Virus record (IMG/VR): IMGVR_UViG_3300032238_001058
Span: 1-64,000 of that record
Source: a virus
Strand: one strand, 5' to 3'
DNA: 64,000 nt
A program made the position numbers and the translations under genes. The first letter of the stretch is position 1; each line of letters starts with the position of its first letter. Shown in pieces: positions 3,040-17,575 of this stretch. The notes below the pieces were generated by a model, which worked only from the letters and a program-made list of their open reading frames with translations, made no database searches and was not told where the DNA came from.

Positions 3040-4785
3040 CTACACAGATGTTAGCGCAGCATCCTGCAGTTGCAACGCCTTGCCAAAGGCTTCTGTGTAT
3101 GCATCCTTCTGCTCCTGCGTCAACCGTTGGTTGGATGTGCTAACAATCTGACTGACACTCATCATGCCCATGTCAACAGTAAGTTGAACAGTGAACTTAG
3201 GTTGACCATCAACCATACAAAGCACAATAAAATGTTTCTTCTTGCGTATGCCATCAGCATAACTACTTGCATTACCAACGCAGTTACGTACAGCCTGGCC
3301 CCATGCTGACAGTTGATGTGTGTCATGAGGCTGGAAAAATGACCAACGCTCATTGTTTACCTCAACCTTAACAGGTGATGGGAACAAATCTTGAGGCAAC
3401 TTGACATTAGCATGTTCAATCTTCCATGCTTCTGCTTGTACATGATCATGAAACTCAGTCAACCTCCAACGCCTTGGCGGATCAATAGCAATATCTTTAT
3501 CAAGTACTGAAGACAGCATGGATATTGTGTCATACCAATCGCCAAAGTAAAAAACTACAACACCAATGCACCTATCAATAGAACGATTAAGTTCACTGAT
3601 TGACATACTATCAATCTTGTCATTATAGAATTTTTTAAGGATGTTAAAGAAAGTAGCTGGTTGCATATGTTTGCACAACCACTCTTGTGTTTTTCTATCT
3701 GAGTGGCGATCAAAACGTGTGCCAAGTAATTGTTCAAGATGTGTTTGGTAAAAATCAACAGGACAATCTGGCCATATATCATTTACATACGCAATTGTGT
3801 TAACTAATGTTTCAATGCGTTGCCAAGGTTGTTTTACCTTAGCCAATAAACTATTATCTGGATCATTGAACATTGCAATAGATTCATCGCACTGTGCTTG
3901 AATCCATTTACGAAAGAATGGCTTACCAATAATATGCATAATCTTGTGAGCTATACGATAGAATTCTTCGTAGGAATAATCAATAGCATTTTTGTATATA
4001 TCAGCTAATGTATAAAACAAATCTGCTGATGGCACCATATCAATTTGAGCTTGCACAGGATCACTAAAAGTTTGCCAATATTTTTGAAGCCCACTCATCT
4101 CAAGTATCTTGGCAAAGCTTGTTAAAGTAAACCGATCAAAGAATCCATGCGAGTCTTCCCATTGAGGTATGGTATCTTTGAGTGCAGATTCAAAAGCCCT
4201 GATTGTATTCCTAATGTATTCACCCTTGTGATATTGAATATAAAAAAGATTCCACCACTTGTATGTCTTACCATTTGCAATAGCTTCTTTAGTTAAGTTC
4301 TTACGAACAACACGAAATTCGCTACGTCCATACTTAATGTATTCAATGTCTTGACTATCTGTATTCATGTGTATTGCAGTTGGAATAGATTGTTTCATTG
4401 AATCAAGATTCTTATAGGCATATGCATATCCATAAACATAATCCTTCTCTTGTCCCCTGGGTGGTAGCCATGCTGCATACCAAATCTTTTCGTAGTGATA
4501 GATAATGGCATGTGTAATAGAGCCAGCATTAGGATTAGTAGGATCTACTAACCTTTTAAACTGTGCGTGACGATGTTTTACTTCCCTGGAATTAATTTCA
4601 GTTACTACCCGTTGAAGTGTATCAGGATCAACTACATCAGCAGGAATTAAATCAAAGACTGCACCAAGTGGAAACTTAGGTTTGGCTTTGGGTTCAGTAG
4701 ATTTTTGCTCACGTTGCAAGTGCTTAAGCTTGGGATCATAAGCAAGCAGTTGCGTTTGAAGATTGGTTGGGAGACGGAATTCCAT
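3040..4785 (-). CDS. PcfJ-like domain protein
   Basis: 581 aa; C-terminal FHD...QLSAWGQAVRNCVG...Y resembles the PcfJ-like motif. Confidence 0.7.
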   Translation of the reverse strand: MEFRLPTNLQTQLLAYDPKLKHLQREQKSTEPKAKPKFPLGAVFDLIPADVVDPDTLQRVVTEINSREVKHRHAQFKRLVDPTNPNAGSITHAIIYHYEKIWYAAWLPPRGQEKDYVYGYAYAYKNLDSMKQSIPTAIHMNTDSQDIEYIKYGRSEFRVVRKNLTKEAIANGKTYKWWNLFYIQYHKGEYIRNTIRAFESALKDTIPQWEDSHGFFDRFTLTSFAKILEMSGLQKYWQTFSDPVQAQIDMVPSADLFYTLADIYKNAIDYSYEEFYRIAHKIMHIIGKPFFRKWIQAQCDESIAMFNDPDNSLLAKVKQPWQRIETLVNTIAYVNDIWPDCPVDFYQTHLEQLLGTRFDRHSDRKTQEWLCKHMQPATFFNILKKFYNDKIDSMSISELNRSIDRCIGVVVFYFGDWYDTISMLSSVLDKDIAIDPPRRWRLTEFHDHVQAEAWKIEHANVKLPQDLFPSPVKVEVNNERWSFFQPHDTHQLSAWGQAVRNCVGNASSYADGIRKKKHFIVLCMVDGQPKFTVQLTVDMGMMSVSQIVSTSNQRLTQEQKDAYTEAFGKALQLQDAALTSV

Positions 4786-4849: not shown

Positions 4850-5098
4850 TCAGTCGTTATCTATTGGGAGTAGTTCCCAGTCAGGGTTGAGATCAGTAAG
4901 GTAGCTACAGAAGCCATCTTCGTCAAGAGGGATTTGTTCTCCCTCATCCATCTCAAAGCTAGCTCTGCATAATGCAGGAGCATACTCGGCAGGGTCAAGG
5001 TAAGTTGACTGATGGATGAGACGCATGTCATCAACCACTGCTGTAACTGTGACATCGTTACCATCAATGACTGTGTGTTCAATCGCTAACACGTTCAT
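4850..5098 (-). CDS. acidic hypothetical protein
   Basis: ORF. Confidence 0.7.
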   Translation of the reverse strand: MNVLAIEHTVIDGNDVTVTAVVDDMRLIHQSTYLDPAEYAPALCRASFEMDEGEQIPLDEDGFCSYLTDLNPDWELLPIDND

Positions 5099-5390: not shown

Positions 5391-5588
5391 TTAAAACAAC
5401 TTGATGTTACGTTTGCTTAAACCTGTACCAGGTAATGAGATAGATCCACGTACACCAGATTCTCTGGCGTTAAGTGTTACCTGGAATGGACCAAGTTTAA
5501 TTGACTTGGTAAATGATTTGATACCACGCTCGGTTATGTTAAACCCAGCGATGGTTCGATCAAAGTTGATAGGTGATCTGTCAGTCAT
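5391..5588 (-). CDS. DUF4236-like small basic protein
   Basis: KSIKLGPF.VTLN....GVRGSISLPGTGLS; starts at MTD linker. Confidence 0.6.
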   Translation of the reverse strand: MTDRSPINFDRTIAGFNITERGIKSFTKSIKLGPFQVTLNARESGVRGSISLPGTGLSKRNIKLF

Positions 5589-5916
5589 TAAGTTGCTCCA
5601 GTGCTTGGCGGATGGTGTCATAAGCATGGCCGTCAATCTTCTCATCGTCATTAATATTGCTAAGTTCACGCAACGCTTGCTGCTTCAAGCTTGGTTGTTT
5701 GGGGCGTCGAGCAACTCGCAGTAATCGAGCGGTATCATAATCAATGTTTGATCCTCCATTAAGCCAAACACAACAAGCCTCTAGCTCTTGGTCAGCACCC
5801 CATTTAGCAGCCTCCAAAGCAATCCACTGATCACGAAACCAACCTGAAGCTGGAGCTTTACTGCGAAACTGTTGCAATACTTCTGGCATTAAAACAATCG
5901 GATGGTGGTCAGTCAT
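5581..5916 (-). CDS. tandem-array paralog F
   Basis: AAKWGADQELEACC...RRPKQPSLKQQAL...IRQALEQLND. Confidence 0.8.
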   Translation of the reverse strand: MTDHHPIVLMPEVLQQFRSKAPASGWFRDQWIALEAAKWGADQELEACCVWLNGGSNIDYDTARLLRVARRPKQPSLKQQALRELSNINDDEKIDGHAYDTIRQALEQLND

Positions 5917-6374
5917 TCGGGCAGGGCCTCCAGTGCGCGGCGGATGATGTCGGCTTGGGTGGCAAAAAACGTCACGTAGTCAGTGCTCAGAGGTCTGCTA
6001 ACTCCTTGTTCAATCCACTGCTGCACCAGCTCCGGCGGTGGGGTGATTGGATGTTGGTCAGTCATTAAGTTGCTCCAGTGCTTGTCGGATGGTGATGAAG
6101 TCTTGATGCGGTCTAGTGCTTCCAACGCCTGTTCCCTCAAACTCGGTGGCTTGGGACGGCGTGCGGAGCGCAGATAAGAACTATCAAAGTGTAAACATGC
6201 ATCGTCCAGCCACTCACAGCAAGCATCCAGCTCGCAATCGGCACCCCATTGGGCGGCTCGGGTGGCGATATGTTCGTCGCTCAATCCAACTCGAACTGGT
6301 GTTCCTTCATGCCAGATTTCGGCCACCCACTGCTGCACCAGCTCCGGCGGTGGGGTAAGTTTGGGGTCAGTCAT
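5913..6374 (-). CDS. tandem-array paralogs D+E, fused by a frameshifting deletion; E internally deleted
   Basis: D reads through the 6058 junction in the alternative frame (SDKHWSNL-MTD); E lacks the AAQWGADQ to PSLKEQAL blocks. Confidence 0.7.
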   Translation of the reverse strand: MTDPKLTPPPELVQQWVAEIWHEGTPVRVGLSDEHIATRAAQWGADCELDACCEWLDDACLHFDSSYLRSARRPKPPSLREQALEALDRIKTSSPSDKHWSNLMTDQHPITPPPELVQQWIEQGVSRPLSTDYVTFFATQADIIRRALEALPE

Positions 6375-6711
6375 TAAGTTGCTCCAGTGCTTGGCGGATG
6401 ATGTGTTTGTCATCTGCAGTAGGAAACTGATCCATACGGTCTAGTGCCTCAAACGCCTGCTCCTTCAAGCTTGGCGACTTGGGGCGGCGGGCATTGCGAA
6501 TATTAACAATAACCTCACCAGACCCTATCCCATACCAATCGTCAATCCACTCACAACACGCCTCCAACTCCTGGTCCGACCCCCATTGTGCCGCATAGTT
6601 AGCCAACCGCAGTGTCCAACTTTTTTCGCTGGATTTGTTTTCATTTGCAACTGCCGTATCAAACCATTGCTGCACCAGTTCCACTGGTGGAGTGAATTTA
6701 GGGTCAGTCAT
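6367..6711 (-). CDS. tandem-array paralog C
   Basis: MTDPKFTPPVELVQQW...AAQWGSDQELEACCEW...IIRQALEQLND. Confidence 0.8.
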   Translation of the reverse strand: MTDPKFTPPVELVQQWFDTAVANENKSSEKSWTLRLANYAAQWGSDQELEACCEWIDDWYGIGSGEVIVNIRNARRPKSPSLKEQAFEALDRMDQFPTADDKHIIRQALEQLND

Positions 6712-7048
6712 TAAGTTGCTCCAGTGCTTGTCGGATGATGTCAGTGATCTCAGGGATGTAGTGGCCGTCGCGCGCAATCGTCCCCAGCATCTGCAGCGCA
6801 ATACTGTTCAGCGTTTGAGGTTTGGGGCGGCGTGCGGCGCGGAGTGCCGGAATGGCTTTGCCGTCATCGCCCCAGTAGTCCATGCGCTTCATCCAGTCGA
6901 TGCACGCCTCCAGCTCCTGGTCGGCGCCCCATTGGGCGGCTTGAGTGGCGAGGTTCCTCCAGAACTGATCGTAAGTTTCGTGCTTGTTGCTACGAACACA
7001 CCACTCACGCACCAGTTCCACTGGTGGAGTGAGTTTAGGGTCAGTCAT
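6704..7048 (-). CDS. tandem-array paralog B
   Basis: MTDPKLTPPVELVREW...AAQWGADQELEAC...IIRQALEQLND. Confidence 0.8.
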   Translation of the reverse strand: MTDPKLTPPVELVREWCVRSNKHETYDQFWRNLATQAAQWGADQELEACIDWMKRMDYWGDDGKAIPALRAARRPKPQTLNSIALQMLGTIARDGHYIPEITDIIRQALEQLND

Positions 7049-7400
7049 TAAGTTGCTCCAGTGCTTGTCGGATAATACGTTGGTCATCGGCGGTAGGAAA
7101 CTGATCCATGCGGTTTAGTGCTTCCAGCGCCTGCTCCTTCAAGCTCGGCGGCTTGGGGCGGCGGACGGCGCGGAGTGACTCGCTGTAAGACCAATGCTCA
7201 GTGTCATAGCCTTTAGCCCACTCAAGACACGCCTCCAGCTCCTGCTCGGCGCCCCATTGGGCGGCCTCAATTAATCTTTGTGCATAGGCTTCATCTGGCA
7301 CGGATCGTGCTGCGTGACAGCCAAGACCGAGCCCATGTGGCGCATCTATCCACTGCTTTACCAGCTCAGGCGGCGGTGTGATGGGATGTTGGTCAGTCAT
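7041..7400 (-). CDS. tandem-array paralog A
   Basis: MTDQHPITPPPELVKQW...AAQWGAEQELEAC...IIRQALEQLND. Confidence 0.8.
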   Translation of the reverse strand: MTDQHPITPPPELVKQWIDAPHGLGLGCHAARSVPDEAYAQRLIEAAQWGAEQELEACLEWAKGYDTEHWSYSESLRAVRRPKPPSLKEQALEALNRMDQFPTADDQRIIRQALEQLND

Positions 7401-7719
7401 CGTTCAAATCTACAGGGCGATAGGGGGGCATCAACTGTCCATTGGCATCAATAAAACCAAATTCCTGCAGGAACTGCCGGGCAGCAGCACAGTCACCATC
7501 TAAAGCACGTTGCAACAATGTTGGAGCAGCAAGTTCATCGGCTAAACTTTCAAGTGTTGCTACTGGAACGCCAACTAAACTTGCGTCATCGCAATCGCAG
7601 TACTCATCAAAGACACAAGCAAGATGCCTAAGCACATTGGCAATGCCTTCTCGAATACTTTCGCCTTCTTTAAACTCATCAATCAAACGCTGAGAACGGG
7701 ATGTGAGATGGTCAGTCAT
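7393..7719 (-). CDS. hypothetical protein
   Basis: bounded by ATGACTGA linkers. Confidence 0.7.
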   Translation of the reverse strand: MTDHLTSRSQRLIDEFKEGESIREGIANVLRHLACVFDEYCDCDDASLVGVPVATLESLADELAAPTLLQRALDGDCAAARQFLQEFGFIDANGQLMPPYRPVDLNDD

Positions 7720-7942
7720 TGTCTTCCTCCATTTCTTGAGTAATCTTTGAGTGCCAGTACTGCCAACGTACAAGCGCTGGCACAGAAGATGGTTGAATGC
7801 CCATGTTTTCTAAAAGCAATTCAAACCATTGGGCCATTGCTTCAATTGTGGCATCAACTTTTGGATGACCCGGTGGATAATCCAAAGTTTCTCCAAGCAT
7901 GCATTGGAGCTTTGTGTAATTATTTTCATCATTAGTCATCAT
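7712..7942 (-). CDS. hypothetical protein
   Basis: ends ...EEDND* at a linker. Confidence 0.65.
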   Translation of the reverse strand: MMTNDENNYTKLQCMLGETLDYPPGHPKVDATIEAMAQWFELLLENMGIQPSSVPALVRWQYWHSKITQEMEEDND

Positions 7943-8234
7943 AGGAATCTGCATGGTGAAGTACAAACTTCAAATCAAAATACTCAGGATCATCTTTGTC
8001 TTTAGGATGGTATGTAGCTACAAATCCACCACTACTAACTTCCTTCTCAGCAATGCAGTCACGCAGTAAGTTACGTGCCATTGCTTTAAGTCTGGGCAGT
8101 GTTGGAACTGAACGTCCAATACTATCTGTTGTTGCCCATTGCCAGTCAAGTGCTGACATAGCAATGTGTACTTTTTCAAAATTGAATTTATCAATGACTT
8201 CATTAATCATTGATTCATGTACTTTATTAATCAT
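7932..8234 (-). CDS. conserved phage hypothetical protein
   Basis: FNFEKVH..M..LDW.W...VPT...LK..AR.LL motif. Confidence 0.75.
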   Translation of the reverse strand: MINKVHESMINEVIDKFNFEKVHIAMSALDWQWATTDSIGRSVPTLPRLKAMARNLLRDCIAEKEVSSGGFVATYHPKDKDDPEYFDLKFVLHHADSYDD

Positions 8235-14206: not shown

Positions 14207-14234
14207 AAAAATGCCGGGGTTTGCGGCCCCGGCT
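14207..14234 (-). terminator. intrinsic terminator downstream of 14265-14468
   Basis: GCCGGGGC-CGCAA-ACCCCGGC-ATTTTT on minus strand. Confidence 0.6.
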
Positions 14235-14581: not shown

Positions 14582-17575
14582 ATGGCGCTGGCACCTGCAG
14601 ATTTTGCCGCATACAGTCGGGCTACTGGCGCCCCATACCCCGAAGATTCCGAAGAAATGGCGCAAATGGCTCCTGCTGTAGCCGAATTTCGCCGTAATCA
14701 ACTCAAAGCTCCACGTCAGGAGTCAAATCCCCTTGCTGCCCTTGGTGCTGCTGCCCTTGGTGCTGGTGCATTAGCTGGTGCGTTCTTTGGTGCTCGTCAT
14801 TTACTCAAGGCTCCACAAGAAGTTAGGCAGGCGGGCCGTAAATTAACTGATTTACCCAGTGCTGAAGCAGCTCTTAACACTGCTGCACGCTACAAACCAG
14901 CAGATGCCACGCCACCCCCCTCAAAACCTGCAATTCCCCAGGCAACGGTTGATCTTGCAGAATTACAAAAACCTAAAGAACCAGCAACTTTATTAGGATT
15001 TTTGCAAGATGTGCAAGAGCAAGAAAATTTCCGTGGTATTCCACGTCCTGCAACTCAGTATCGCCCTGGTAGTATTGCAGACCGTGTTACAAAAGAGCAA
15101 CAACAACGTGTTCAATCTGAAGTAGATGGTAATAATCCTGAAACTCAAACATACGTTTCAAAACTCAATGAACGTCGTCAAGTACGTGCAGCTCAAGCAC
15201 AAGAACTTGCGGATAAAGTTAAAAATGCTTTAATTTCTGGCGGCGAACAACAAGCATATGATTTATCAACTCCACAAATAGATGCAGTGGGTTCAACTGC
15301 AGCTTCTGCTTTTGCCGAGGCTAAAGAACGTGAGCAGCAACGTAAACCAGCACCAGTCACTAAAAGCTGGCAAGACAAATTATTTGATGAACGAGGCATG
15401 CTTCGTTCAGATGTAATTGCAATGCACCTTGGAGATGAAAATGTAATTCCCAAAAACATTGCTGAAGAATTAATTGCCAGCGCTGAGGTTGACCGCCGTG
15501 GAAACATATTAGGTTTTACTAACTCTCCTGCAATTTTCCAAGCAACTAAACATGTTCGCGAAAATCTGCTTGCCCATGATTATCAAAACTCTATTAAAAA
15601 CTATCTAGCAGGTGAAGAACCTGGAGACCTGCAAGCTGCACAGAGTCGTGGGTACGGTTGGTCTGCAAAAAGCACAGCTCCCACTGATGTAATTACAGTT
15701 CAAACAAATGAAGGGGAAACTCCAAAAATTTCAGTAGCACGTCGTTCTTCTGCTAAATATGATATCAGTGATTTAGAGCCTTTATTTTTAGATCCAGAAA
15801 CAAAAACTTTAGTACGTAAAGCTGACATTGGTTCAAGTGGAACACCAGATGCTGAATCTGGTACTGGTATTGGAGAAGAAATTGGACAAGCTGTTGCTTT
15901 TGTTCCAAGGGAAGAATTAAGTTCTTTTGTATCTACACCTGGTGTTTCTGGTTCTGGCACTGAGCAGTATAAAAATCAAGGCGCAGGATATGCCATTGGG
16001 GGTGTAAAAGAATTTGGTGGTTCTAGTGGCGCTGGCTACAAAGCACAAGATCCTTCGCTTCCCGTACTTTCTGTAGATGAACATATTTCCAATAAAAATA
16101 TTGGAGTAAGTTCTAATGGAAACTTATACGCAAAAGTAAAACCTATTGCATTAACTGGTGATCCGCGTTTATCCAAACGTCTTAATCAAGATTACGGAAA
16201 TACTTTCTATCGGCACCCAGTTACCAATAAACCCTGGAACTCAGCAGAAGAAGCTGCTGCATTTATTAACCAAGTTCACGAGCAATTCAATGAAAATCAA
16301 CTGGCTAAAATTCAATCTCAAATGGAAACCAAAGAGCTATACCGTGGTCCCATGGAAGCCGCATTAGTCGGCCGTGATCCTGAAGGCAGGCAAAGGAAAA
16401 CCTGGTTAGATCCATATCAAAAACTTTCAGATATTGGGGAAGCAACTTTGTCTTCACAAATTCAAAGTATGTTGCTGCAAAAAGGTGTTATACAAGAAGC
16501 ACAAACAGAAGAAGGTGGTAAATACTTAAGGCAAACCCGTTATTCAGTGCCGGATGTTATTGATGGGAACGAGACCAAAGCCTGGGTACTTGGCCCTGAA
16601 CACAGTGGTGTTTTTCCTACAACAACAGATCAAGGAAAACGGAATCACTATGAATATTTACAAGCAGTTCAGAAGGCATACCAAGAAATCACAGGTAATG
16701 CATTGGCTGATATTGACGTTGCATTGACGCTTCGCCAACAAAAAGTAGGCCCATACCTTGGCGGTCCCAATAGCAATCCTTACCTAAACAAAGCTTTAAC
16801 TGTTGCCAACACTTTGACTCAAGTTGCTGAACCAACTAGACAACGCGCCCTGGAGCCAGGCTCTAACGAAGGTTTAGGCGAGCGATATGGTTTAGGTGCA
16901 ACTGTTTCCGCACGTCCGTCACGTACAATCCCCAGCAGGCAAAAAACTGTTCCGTTAGTTTCTGCGTCTTTTGAACCTGTTTATGAGTGGAATGAAGAAA
17001 AAGGAATGATGGAGTACCTTGGTGAGCAAGCCAAATACTCAACAACAACAAAAGAACTTCACCCCAGTGAGATCGGTGGTAAACGCCTTGCCGCTGCCCT
17101 TGTTGATTACCGTGAACGCTCTGGTCGTCCAATGCGCCGTACTGATTTCCTTCAGTTTGCATCATCTATTGCACAACAGGAAGGAGCGGATATTAATGAT
17201 GTAATTAAACAAGCATCTGCTTTCTCCCGTGGAGCAGGACAACAAGCTGTTATTGGTAGGACAATGCAACAAGGTAGGCGCGGATTGTCTGCCATGGATC
17301 GCCTGTCTCCTGCAGAAGAAGTTGCACAAACAGTAGCCGAATATGATTTTGGTGAAACCATTGGATCTGATATTGAGGAATTAACACAAAGGTCTCAGAT
17401 GCCTCGCCCCTTTGATAAAGAATTAGCAGCACGCCAAAGCCAACGTGCTAAAGTAGAGCCAATGGGATCAACGGAAACGTTTGGAGTTAATGAACAGATG
17501 CTTTCTGGCTTGATGGGTAAATTAAGAGCGCAAGCTGATCGCCGTGCAGGCAAACATCGCAATCGTTACTCATGA
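14582..17575 (+). CDS. large hypothetical protein, probably virion/ejected protein
   Basis: 997 aa; N-terminal Gly/Ala hydrophobic helix; first gene of late module. Confidence 0.75.
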   Translation: MALAPADFAAYSRATGAPYPEDSEEMAQMAPAVAEFRRNQLKAPRQESNPLAALGAAALGAGALAGAFFGARHLLKAPQEVRQAGRKLTDLPSAEAALNTAARYKPADATPPPSKPAIPQATVDLAELQKPKEPATLLGFLQDVQEQENFRGIPRPATQYRPGSIADRVTKEQQQRVQSEVDGNNPETQTYVSKLNERRQVRAAQAQELADKVKNALISGGEQQAYDLSTPQIDAVGSTAASAFAEAKEREQQRKPAPVTKSWQDKLFDERGMLRSDVIAMHLGDENVIPKNIAEELIASAEVDRRGNILGFTNSPAIFQATKHVRENLLAHDYQNSIKNYLAGEEPGDLQAAQSRGYGWSAKSTAPTDVITVQTNEGETPKISVARRSSAKYDISDLEPLFLDPETKTLVRKADIGSSGTPDAESGTGIGEEIGQAVAFVPREELSSFVSTPGVSGSGTEQYKNQGAGYAIGGVKEFGGSSGAGYKAQDPSLPVLSVDEHISNKNIGVSSNGNLYAKVKPIALTGDPRLSKRLNQDYGNTFYRHPVTNKPWNSAEEAAAFINQVHEQFNENQLAKIQSQMETKELYRGPMEAALVGRDPEGRQRKTWLDPYQKLSDIGEATLSSQIQSMLLQKGVIQEAQTEEGGKYLRQTRYSVPDVIDGNETKAWVLGPEHSGVFPTTTDQGKRNHYEYLQAVQKAYQEITGNALADIDVALTLRQQKVGPYLGGPNSNPYLNKALTVANTLTQVAEPTRQRALEPGSNEGLGERYGLGATVSARPSRTIPSRQKTVPLVSASFEPVYEWNEEKGMMEYLGEQAKYSTTTKELHPSEIGGKRLAAALVDYRERSGRPMRRTDFLQFASSIAQQEGADINDVIKQASAFSRGAGQQAVIGRTMQQGRRGLSAMDRLSPAEEVAQTVAEYDFGETIGSDIEELTQRSQMPRPFDKELAARQSQRAKVEPMGSTETFGVNEQMLSGLMGKLRAQADRRAGKHRNRYS

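Follow-up and report, generated by a model that had tools for sequence, protein, structure and literature searches.

How can neighbouring genes of one phage be so alike in several short blocks and yet unrelated in the segments between them? This question is raised by a tandem array of small genes at positions 5581-7400 of virus record IMGVR_UViG_3300032238_001058, of which positions 1 to 64,000 (hereafter the window) were analyzed. The source genome, rated 100% complete by IMG/VR (82.6 kb), belongs to an uncultured relative of Synechococcus phage S-EIVl (∼79% nucleotide (nt) identity over the terminase region). On the basis of our results, it is quite likely that the locus is a translationally coupled tandem array of genes of family PHROG 32006, encoding all-alpha proteins of ∼115 amino acids (aa), in which four conserved blocks separate three cassette positions whose alleles are reassorted by recombination in the blocks.

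Organization of the array

All array units lie on the minus strand, as shown by both the list of open reading frames (ORFs) and direct reading. Each intact unit has the order N-V1-K1-V2-K2-V3-C, where N, K1 (AAQWGADQELEAC..W), K2 (LRxxRRPKxPSLKEQAL) and C (IIRQALEQLND) are conserved blocks and V1-V3 are variable segments. The units, with coordinates on the plus-strand scale, are as follows.

7041-7400, minus strand: unit A, intact, 119 aa; ORF and PHROG 32006 match (E 6.8e-25)
7350-7400, 7266-7349, 7215-7265, 7176-7214: N, V1, K1 and V2 of unit A
7116-7175, 7077-7115, 7044-7076, 7041-7043: K2, V3, C and stop codon of unit A
6704-7048, minus strand: unit B, intact, 114 aa; ORF and PHROG 32006 match (E 9.4e-18)
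6367-6711, minus strand: unit C, intact, 114 aa; PHROG 32006 match (E 3.9e-23)
5913-6374, minus strand: D-E fusion ORF, 153 aa; PHROG 32006 match (E 1.6e-33)
6066-6374, minus strand: unit D, with V3 shortened and frameshifted
5913-6065, minus strand: unit E, remnant of 50 aa, in which N block and V1 are directly followed by the second C-block type of the family (RRALEALPE)
5581-5916, minus strand: unit F, intact, 111 aa; PHROG 32006 match (E 1.1e-21)
About 73650-73970, minus strand, outside the window (G000:C1, locus L006): solitary seventh copy in the same 82.6-kb genome

The pattern of the array far exceeds what chance would produce. Across the array, the matches to PHROG 32006, a family annotated as being of unknown function, had E values of 1e-18 to 1e-33 and covered profile positions 2-114 of 116. 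Several units carry recognizable combinations of parts. Unit B has a variant K2 (RRPKPQTLNSIALQML) linked to V3 GTIARDGHYIPEITD, and the seventh copy has this same K2 and V3 allele (RRPKSQTLNSVALQMLKTIERDGHYIPEIT) with different V1 and V2 segments. Unit C has its V3 allele, RMDQFPTADD, in common with A and its N block in common with B (90% nt identity between B and C). In unit D, V3 is out of frame, and therefore the reading frame crosses the junction in the frame of the start codon of E, which yields the D-E protein; E itself has lost K1, V2, K2 and V3. Unit F is the most divergent and most AT-rich unit of the array. In addition, a match of 164 nt with 85% identity, spaced exactly two units apart, was found between 6327-6490 and 7001-7164.

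An earlier reading made from the letters alone (the sequence-only reading) had described six tandem paralogs; the array is real, but only four units (A, B, C and F) are intact. The pattern of blocks with three variable segments was recovered as it had been described, and so were the two N-terminus types (QHPIT in A and E; PKLT or PKFT in B, C and D) and the near-identity of 6673-6736 and 7010-7073, which differ at exactly one of 64 nt. The reported lack of similarity between units in V1 and V2 was borne out by nt identities of 38-58%, the level of unrelated sequence, and the V3 segment said to be common to A and C is 82% identical at the nt level. A junction repeat had been reported to occur five times with a length of 33 nt; the count was right, whereas its length is 28 nt when exact copies are required and ∼35 nt when one variable base is allowed.

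Reassortment of variable segments between phages

To describe the family beyond the array, 385 distinct domains were split into the seven segments by profile alignment; part of this sample had been selected for similarity or thinned at a level of 50% identity. Mean pairwise identity was 0.67-0.76 in the four blocks and 0.17-0.21 in V1-V3. The variable segments fell into discrete classes (V1, 195; V2, 200; V3, 158) that cannot be aligned with one another, and the RMDQFPTADD allele of units A and C was the most frequent of the V3 classes (70 of the 385 domains). Under clonal descent, nearly 100% of the pairs that share V1 should share V2 and V3 as well. However, among the 556 pairs sharing V1, V2 was also shared in only 4.5% and V3 in 6.7%, figures that should be read as lower bounds on linkage since selection and thinning of the sample lower it in appearance. 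The qualitative result on linkage is independent of sample selection.

The same picture was obtained for the individual units. Every variable segment in the window has a match of 76-100% identity in other phages, located beside unrelated segments. For unit A, examples are V1 (82% identity to P0003, P0004, P0005 and P0007), V2 (77% to P0091) and V3 (100% to L010); for unit B, V2 (93% to L103, L105 and L109) and V3 (93% to L088, L089 and L097); for unit D, V1 (96% to L052 and L108); and for unit F, V1 (78% aa identity to L129 and L130) and V2 (85% to L079). One gene, L103, combines the V1 of D with the V2 of B. At the nt level, the similarity rises and falls in steps: D and L103 are 94% identical in V1 and 38% in V2 (D and L108, 87% in V1), B and L103 are 94% identical in K1, 91% in V2 and 65% in K2, B and L089 are 87% identical in K2, 93% in V3 and 53% in V2, and A and L010 are 97% identical in V3 and 31% in V1. 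The remaining segments of B are 50-67% identical to those of L103 and L089. Thus, identity jumps from about 50% to 91-97% at conserved blocks.

Within the array, the nearest unit also shifts with the segment examined: B and C are closest in N, A and B in K1, and A and C or A and D in K2 and V3. A segment-by-segment comparison of this kind had been set beforehand as a check, and nearest neighbours indeed differed by segment. The proposal of the sequence-only reading that recombination at the conserved blocks reassorts the variable segments is supported by near linkage equilibrium among the 385 domains, by nt breakpoints at the blocks and by the mosaic structure that cultured isolates have too. 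V alleles reassort almost freely between genes of different phages, with exchange points inside the conserved blocks. Cassettes are exchanged mainly between phages in the population and not only inside the array; recombination within the array itself is inferred.

A mosaic could also be produced by short-read assembly, if paralogs or strains were joined across shared blocks of 30-60 nt. The window is itself a metagenome assembly, hundreds of other contigs in sister samples carry the blocks, and each conserved block interrupts the Logan unitigs of the source run. However, clonally sequenced phages S-H1, S-CBS2 and S-RIP1 give matches restricted to single segments in the same way: S-H1 matches P0193 in V1 (76% identity) and P0267 in V2 (93%), S-CBS2 matches P0167 in V2 (100%), and S-RIP1 matches P0156 and L117 in V3 (92%). 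Since the cultured isolates are mosaic likewise, the mosaic is not an assembly artefact. Also against such an origin, identical mosaic genes were recovered repeatedly (26 of 135 distinct genes in 2-6 independent loci), the unitigs of the units had depths of 7-11x versus 9.1-9.6x for the flanks in the source run, and an ordinary read is longer than any of the exact repeats (28-64 nt). We therefore regard an artefact as very unlikely.

Selection on the variable segments

The sequence-only reading had called the variable segments hypervariable and placed them under diversifying selection, a wording that our analysis does not support. For pairs sharing an allele, the ratio of nonsynonymous to synonymous substitutions (dN/dS) was 0.14 in V1, 0.13 in V2 and 0.10 in V3, at dS of 0.56-0.96, as expected of discrete conserved alleles; these values refer to pairs with at least 60% aa identity, a condition that biases dN downwards. 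Despite the bias in dN, protein sequence has been kept through much synonymous change, and V alleles are therefore constrained modules under purifying selection and not stretches that mutate fast. In the conserved blocks, dN/dS was 0.18-0.28 at dS of 0.6-0.86.

These values also bear on the simplest account of the array, namely that the genes were merely duplicated in tandem and that three loops then changed quickly, by point-mutational drift or under positive selection, without any exchange of segments. The copies are indeed in tandem, and both the 164-nt match between units two positions apart and the 64-nt near-identity of neighbouring junctions fit local duplication or gene conversion. On the other hand, dN/dS within alleles is far below 1, V alleles turn up again (76-100% identity) in foreign genes that have unrelated sequence at the remaining segments, the nearest unit varies by segment and the units spread over 12 points of GC content. 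Moreover, each unit is closer to genes of other phages than to its neighbours: A is 65% identical to P0002, yet 45-57% to B, C and F. Duplication and drift alone are thus highly improbable, and this reading can be considered as largely refuted already.

GC content of the units

Units A, B, D and E have a GC content of 56-58%, whereas C has 50%, F 46% (37.5% at third codon positions) and the seventh copy 45%. For comparison, the whole genome has 44.9% and family members in other phages have a mean of 58%. Because A, B, D and E are GC-rich, a local GC peak of 52% is observed at 6001-8000, with 43-45% on either side. From their composition, these four GC-rich units would be recent imports, whereas F and the distant seventh copy would have resided for longer and been ameliorated towards genome composition, F probably being the oldest resident of the array.

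Junctions and translational coupling

The end of one gene and the start of the next are combined in the junction repeat, whose exact copies are listed here together with the one junction of different register.

7040-7067, minus strand: junction repeat, 28 nt exact, CAAGCACTGGAGCAACTTAATGACTGAC
5580-5607, minus strand: the same repeat
6057-6084, minus strand: the same repeat
6366-6393, minus strand: the same repeat
6703-6730, minus strand: the same repeat
5909-5916, minus strand: E/F junction, where ATGACTGA is used in its second register; the first TGA ends E (...LPE*), with an overlap of 4 nt

The 28-nt repeat encodes the end of the C block (QALEQLND*), a GGAG Shine-Dalgarno motif and the stop/start overlap ATGACTGA. 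The C block ends in ...GCA CTG GAG CAA CTT AAT GAC TGA, with GGAG located 7 nt ahead of the next ATG, which lies within AATGACTGA. In ATGACTGA one frame holds a start codon and each of the other two holds a TGA, and both registers are used: genes of the LND* type overlap the next gene by 8 nt and those of the LPE* type, such as unit E, by 4 nt. Both registers also occur across the family. Arrival of a gene in the third frame leads to read-through, as exemplified by D-E. Within the window, ATGACTGA occurs 16 times (2.2 expected), and 12 of these occurrences are on the minus strand between 564 and 7719. No promoter or terminator was found within the array by a scan for such signals, promoter-like sites being no more frequent than expected from shuffled sequence.

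The same arrangement is common in other phages. Among 147 distinct 3' ends of family genes, 78 end in ATGACTGA and 114 have an overlapping ATG, and a Shine-Dalgarno core was present in the C block of 102 of the latter. Within the array, the C block is 91-97% identical at the nt level in every pair of units, compared with 53-90% for the other conserved blocks. It contains a rare RQ codon pair, which was seen in only about 3 of the ∼70 foreign junctions listed. The pattern indicates that the junction may have been locally homogenised, or that resident junctions may have been retained while gene interiors were replaced.

Two side observations concern junctions of this kind. First, ATGACTGA also ends unrelated small genes, for example, those at 7393-7773 (LNDD*) and 7712-7966 (EDND*). 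Second, in phage S-CBS2 (L152, GU936714), the family gene gp065 and the next three small genes (3299-3978) each overlap the following gene by 8 nt, which is the coupling geometry of the array in the window.

Proposed mechanism of reassortment

We suggest that the mechanism is ordinary homologous recombination across blocks of 40-60 nt, both in co-infection and between tandem copies, with no dedicated generator involved. Chimeric units, changes in copy number, partial units (E, for example) and in-frame fusions (for example, D-E) would be by-products of this process. Partial units are also present in other loci (25 with the N-terminal and 16 with the C-terminal part only), and fused forms of two and three family domains exist in other phages. 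The C block is subject to three constraints at once, as a C-terminal helix, as a GGAG ribosome-binding site and as the carrier of ATGACTGA. A cassette arriving in either TGA frame of ATGACTGA would terminate and pass the ribosome on, and a gene in frame 0 would be fused to the next one.

The regular layout of blocks and cassettes, together with the exact junction repeat, might instead suggest a dedicated generator, such as a diversity-generating retroelement, a site-specific shufflon or a recombinase that recognizes the blocks. We consider this to be exceedingly unlikely. With differing lengths and nt identities of 24-58%, the variable segments are unrelated sequences and not point-mutated copies of a template, and no reverse transcriptase (no RVT_1 match) was found in the 82.6-kb genome; the absence of this enzyme and the differences in segment length rule out a diversity-generating retroelement. 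In addition, no recombinase was recognized, and the family is found in unrelated phage types. The blocks differ at synonymous sites between phages, at the dS and dN/dS values given above, and are therefore conserved as protein and not as fixed recombinase sites.

Some points weigh against reassortment by homologous recombination. Apart from the effects of sampling on linkage and of the identity condition on dN, exchange within the array rests on static sequence, with contigs as the metagenomic data, in which the joints belong to other genes of the family, and no homologue of RecT, ERF, Rad52, RecA or YqaJ was found in this genome.

Distribution of the family and its gene context

Relatives of PHROG 32006 are numerous. 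At least 7,900 proteins matched at E<=1e-3, the matching clusters at 50% identity numbered at least 2,610 (1,762 at E<=1e-10), and the family was present in 503 IMG/VR stretches. In contrast with this abundance, tblastn against 50,697 records of deposited phages identified it only in S-H1, S-CBS2 and S-RIP1, which all infect Synechococcus and are of differing phage types. Their members (S-CBS2 gp065, ADF42421.1; S-H1 AZB50523.1; S-RIP1 AGG91281.1) are annotated as hypothetical only. By profile match and tblastn, they belong to the same family as the units described here; each isolate has one copy, whereas the present genome has a six-unit array and a distant copy. Among the first 80 loci, ∼44% had two or more copies.

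A scan of 185,579 bacterial species genomes revealed no host homologue. Only 12 contigs of metagenome-assembled genomes, with mixed taxonomic labels, contained the family, and these are most likely binned phage DNA. The family is specific to phages of picocyanobacteria, and among the families of uncharacterised small proteins in cyanophages from fresh and coastal waters it is one of the more abundant. The units had no significant match in Pfam or NCBIfam (weak Pfam matches were below the curated cut-offs), units A, B, C and F matched none of the PADLOC defence profiles, and a profile search of the sequences in PDB gave nothing significant, with only CecR at E 0.21. Our literature search found no paper mentioning the motifs of the family or its PHROG identifier, nor one on its mosaic make-up.

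In isolates and metagenomic loci, the neighbours of family genes are small genes beside SSB, ThyX, primase/helicase, a sigma factor, DNA polymerase and a PcfJ-like protein; elsewhere, the family is located among genes for replication and nucleotide metabolism. One of the longer forms mentioned below, a WDGH-domain protein, has one weak partial match to the family.

Structure and possible function

AlphaFold models of unit A (predicted local distance difference test, 76.6; predicted template modelling score, 0.49) and unit B (83.4 and 0.57, respectively) are both all-alpha and have the same five helices. According to the models, these are formed by the N block, by the end of V1 together with K1 and the start of V2 (a long helix), by a short stretch running into K2, by SLKEQAL and by the C block. 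The invariant RRPKPP stretch is predicted to be a loop, and the V segments are located at helix ends and in connecting loops; part of V1 in unit A is modelled with low confidence. Searches of BFVD and ESM Atlas identified only uncharacterised viral relatives.

A wide search with VIA-align had best Z scores of 4.5 for model A and 5.7 for model B (the latter with CsoR and NINJ2); helical proteins unrelated to these scored equally well, and the matches were treated as noise. The matches of unit B to three-helix metal or aldehyde sensors of the CsoR/FrmR type (4adz_A, Z 5.7, root-mean-square deviation 6.2, 78 aligned residues; 5lbm_A, Z 5.3) were below the noise level that the tool states for helical models, and unit A reached Z 3.9 with 4m1p_A.

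With regard to function, we tentatively propose that the constant helices and the RRPKPPSLK loop might either dock on a constant partner or serve as the scaffold, while the cassettes might recognize or evade polymorphic targets of the host or of rival phages. A multi-copy array would then supply a repertoire, which is a functional guess. The sequence-only reading had proposed binders on one scaffold, with putative roles in anti-defence or host takeover. A more specific form of this idea, which seems doubtful at present, is that of population-wide combinatorial recognition: the scaffold would dock on a conserved machine of host or phage, the three swappable cassettes, with hundreds of alleles each, would set specificity for polymorphic targets (for example, host defence or rival-phage proteins) and arrays, linked by ATGACTGA as a stop/restart element tolerant of frame, would act as a plug-in rack. 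If true, adhesin shuffling would have a non-structural counterpart inside the cell, in which a phage gains specificities by short-patch recombination.

Such roles have to be weighed against several negative results. The neighbourhood test found no conserved partner gene, the search for longer forms revealed no informative domain fusion (21 proteins, mostly tandem self-fusions), and Foldseek found no solved fold above noise in PDB for either model (best E 4-5.5). Copy counts from the ORF clustering were disregarded, as read-through frames had merged the family with neighbouring genes. The main alternative to a recognition function is escape from a host sensor. In that case the blocks would hold the whole function and the cassettes would be tolerated spacers or escape epitopes, with the sensor driving negative frequency-dependent escape. 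The most conserved features of the family are short motifs (AAQWGADQELEAC, RRPKPPSLKEQAL) that could act alone, and the low-confidence part of V1 in unit A would also fit. However, the alleles are under purifying selection comparable to that on the blocks and hence are not free spacers, and a phage with 5-7 different copies in its genome would present more targets to a sensor, not fewer. We consider this alternative as rather unlikely on the whole, although for phages with a single copy escape may remain an explanation.

Comparison with known systems

The closest known genetic logic is that of the gp38 adhesins of T2/T6-type phages, whose four hypervariable segments alternate with motifs rich in glycine (Trojet et al., 2011, PMC3157838; Tetart et al., 1996, 1998, cited there). 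The conserved motifs form the structural core, and exchanges in or near them lead to chimeric proteins with new combinations (PMC3157838). In both cases, variable segments alternate with conserved motifs and are reassorted by recombination in the motifs, which is a shared mechanism and not membership of one family. The array family has no glycine-rich motifs, its blocks being PPPELVxQW, AAQWGADQELEAC, RRPKPPSLKEQAL and IRRALEQL, and there is no relation to gp38 in sequence or fold: no adhesin-related Pfam match was found, not even a weak one, and the models of the array proteins are all-alpha. Furthermore, the family is located in a minus-strand module of small genes and replication genes instead of the distal tail-fibre locus that encodes the receptor-binding tip, is usually multi-copy and translationally coupled, and has far more alleles per position than described for gp38.

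Other systems share single aspects with the array. The mobile regulatory cassettes (PeSLs) reported by Arbiol and colleagues in 2010 are intergenic promoter/stem-loop elements through which genes of T4-type phages are shuffled as modules; short conserved boundary sequences with expression signals serve there as homology for swapping small early genes. In the array, the C block and ATGACTGA likewise combine Shine-Dalgarno, stop and start, but the boundary element is coding, acts by translational coupling and is accompanied by intragenic shuffling. In HsdS of type I restriction systems, target-recognition domains are shuffled at conserved regions, which gives rise to new specificities. The array is similar, by analogy only, in that variable modules are split by conserved regions where recombination occurs, although its modules are 5-10 times shorter and number three rather than two; Methylase_S had no match at E<=1 in Pfam or NCBIfam. 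Finally, the 'genomic accordions' of poxviruses and of the African swine fever virus multigene families are tandem multigene families that diversify mainly by duplication and point change under selection. They resemble the array as viral tandem paralogs with gain and loss of copies, fusions and remnants, whereas the diversity of the array consists of pre-existing cassettes reassorted across the phage metapopulation.

The array thus provides an unusually clean natural case of intragenic cassette reassortment, with three positions near linkage equilibrium, in a non-structural gene; such organization has mainly been described for receptor-binding proteins. This instance contributes a frameshift fusion, a homogenised junction, evidence from composition for recent import, the control by isolates and the dN/dS analysis. 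The ATGACTGA junction illustrates how phages can keep small genes exchangeable with translational coupling intact. Should specificity be set by the cassettes, the family would mark an arms race that takes place within picocyanobacterial cells, and it would be a ready scaffold for finding host targets. The phage-host pairs of S-CBS2 (host CB0204), S-H1 (WH7803) and S-RIP1 (WH8101) are cultured and their phages have single copies, so that function is open to direct test.

Genes and features around the array

The borders of the array and other features of the window are listed below.

7393-7400, minus strand: upstream boundary, where an unrelated gene of 126 aa (7393-7773) ends (...LNDD*) in ATGACTGA and unit A also starts
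5391-5588, minus strand: downstream boundary, a gene of 65 aa that starts at the ATGACTGA ending unit F
4850-5098, minus strand: acidic protein of 82 aa without a family match
3040-4785, minus strand: protein of 581 aa with a C-terminal PcfJ-like domain (PF14284, E 3e-7; PHROG 16315)
14213-14233: GC-rich hairpin (GCCGGGG...CCCCGGC) with a terminator score on both strands

The 65-aa gene product has a weak match to DUF4236 (PF14020, E 3.3e-5, 24.7 bits versus a curated cut-off of 27). Relatives of the 82-aa protein (ORF cluster 13, 19 loci) accompany the array family in other phages, and the PcfJ-like protein family was found near it in 17 other phage loci. The hairpin at 14213-14233 marks the border between the minus-strand block of small genes and the large plus-strand genes, which begin at 14582.

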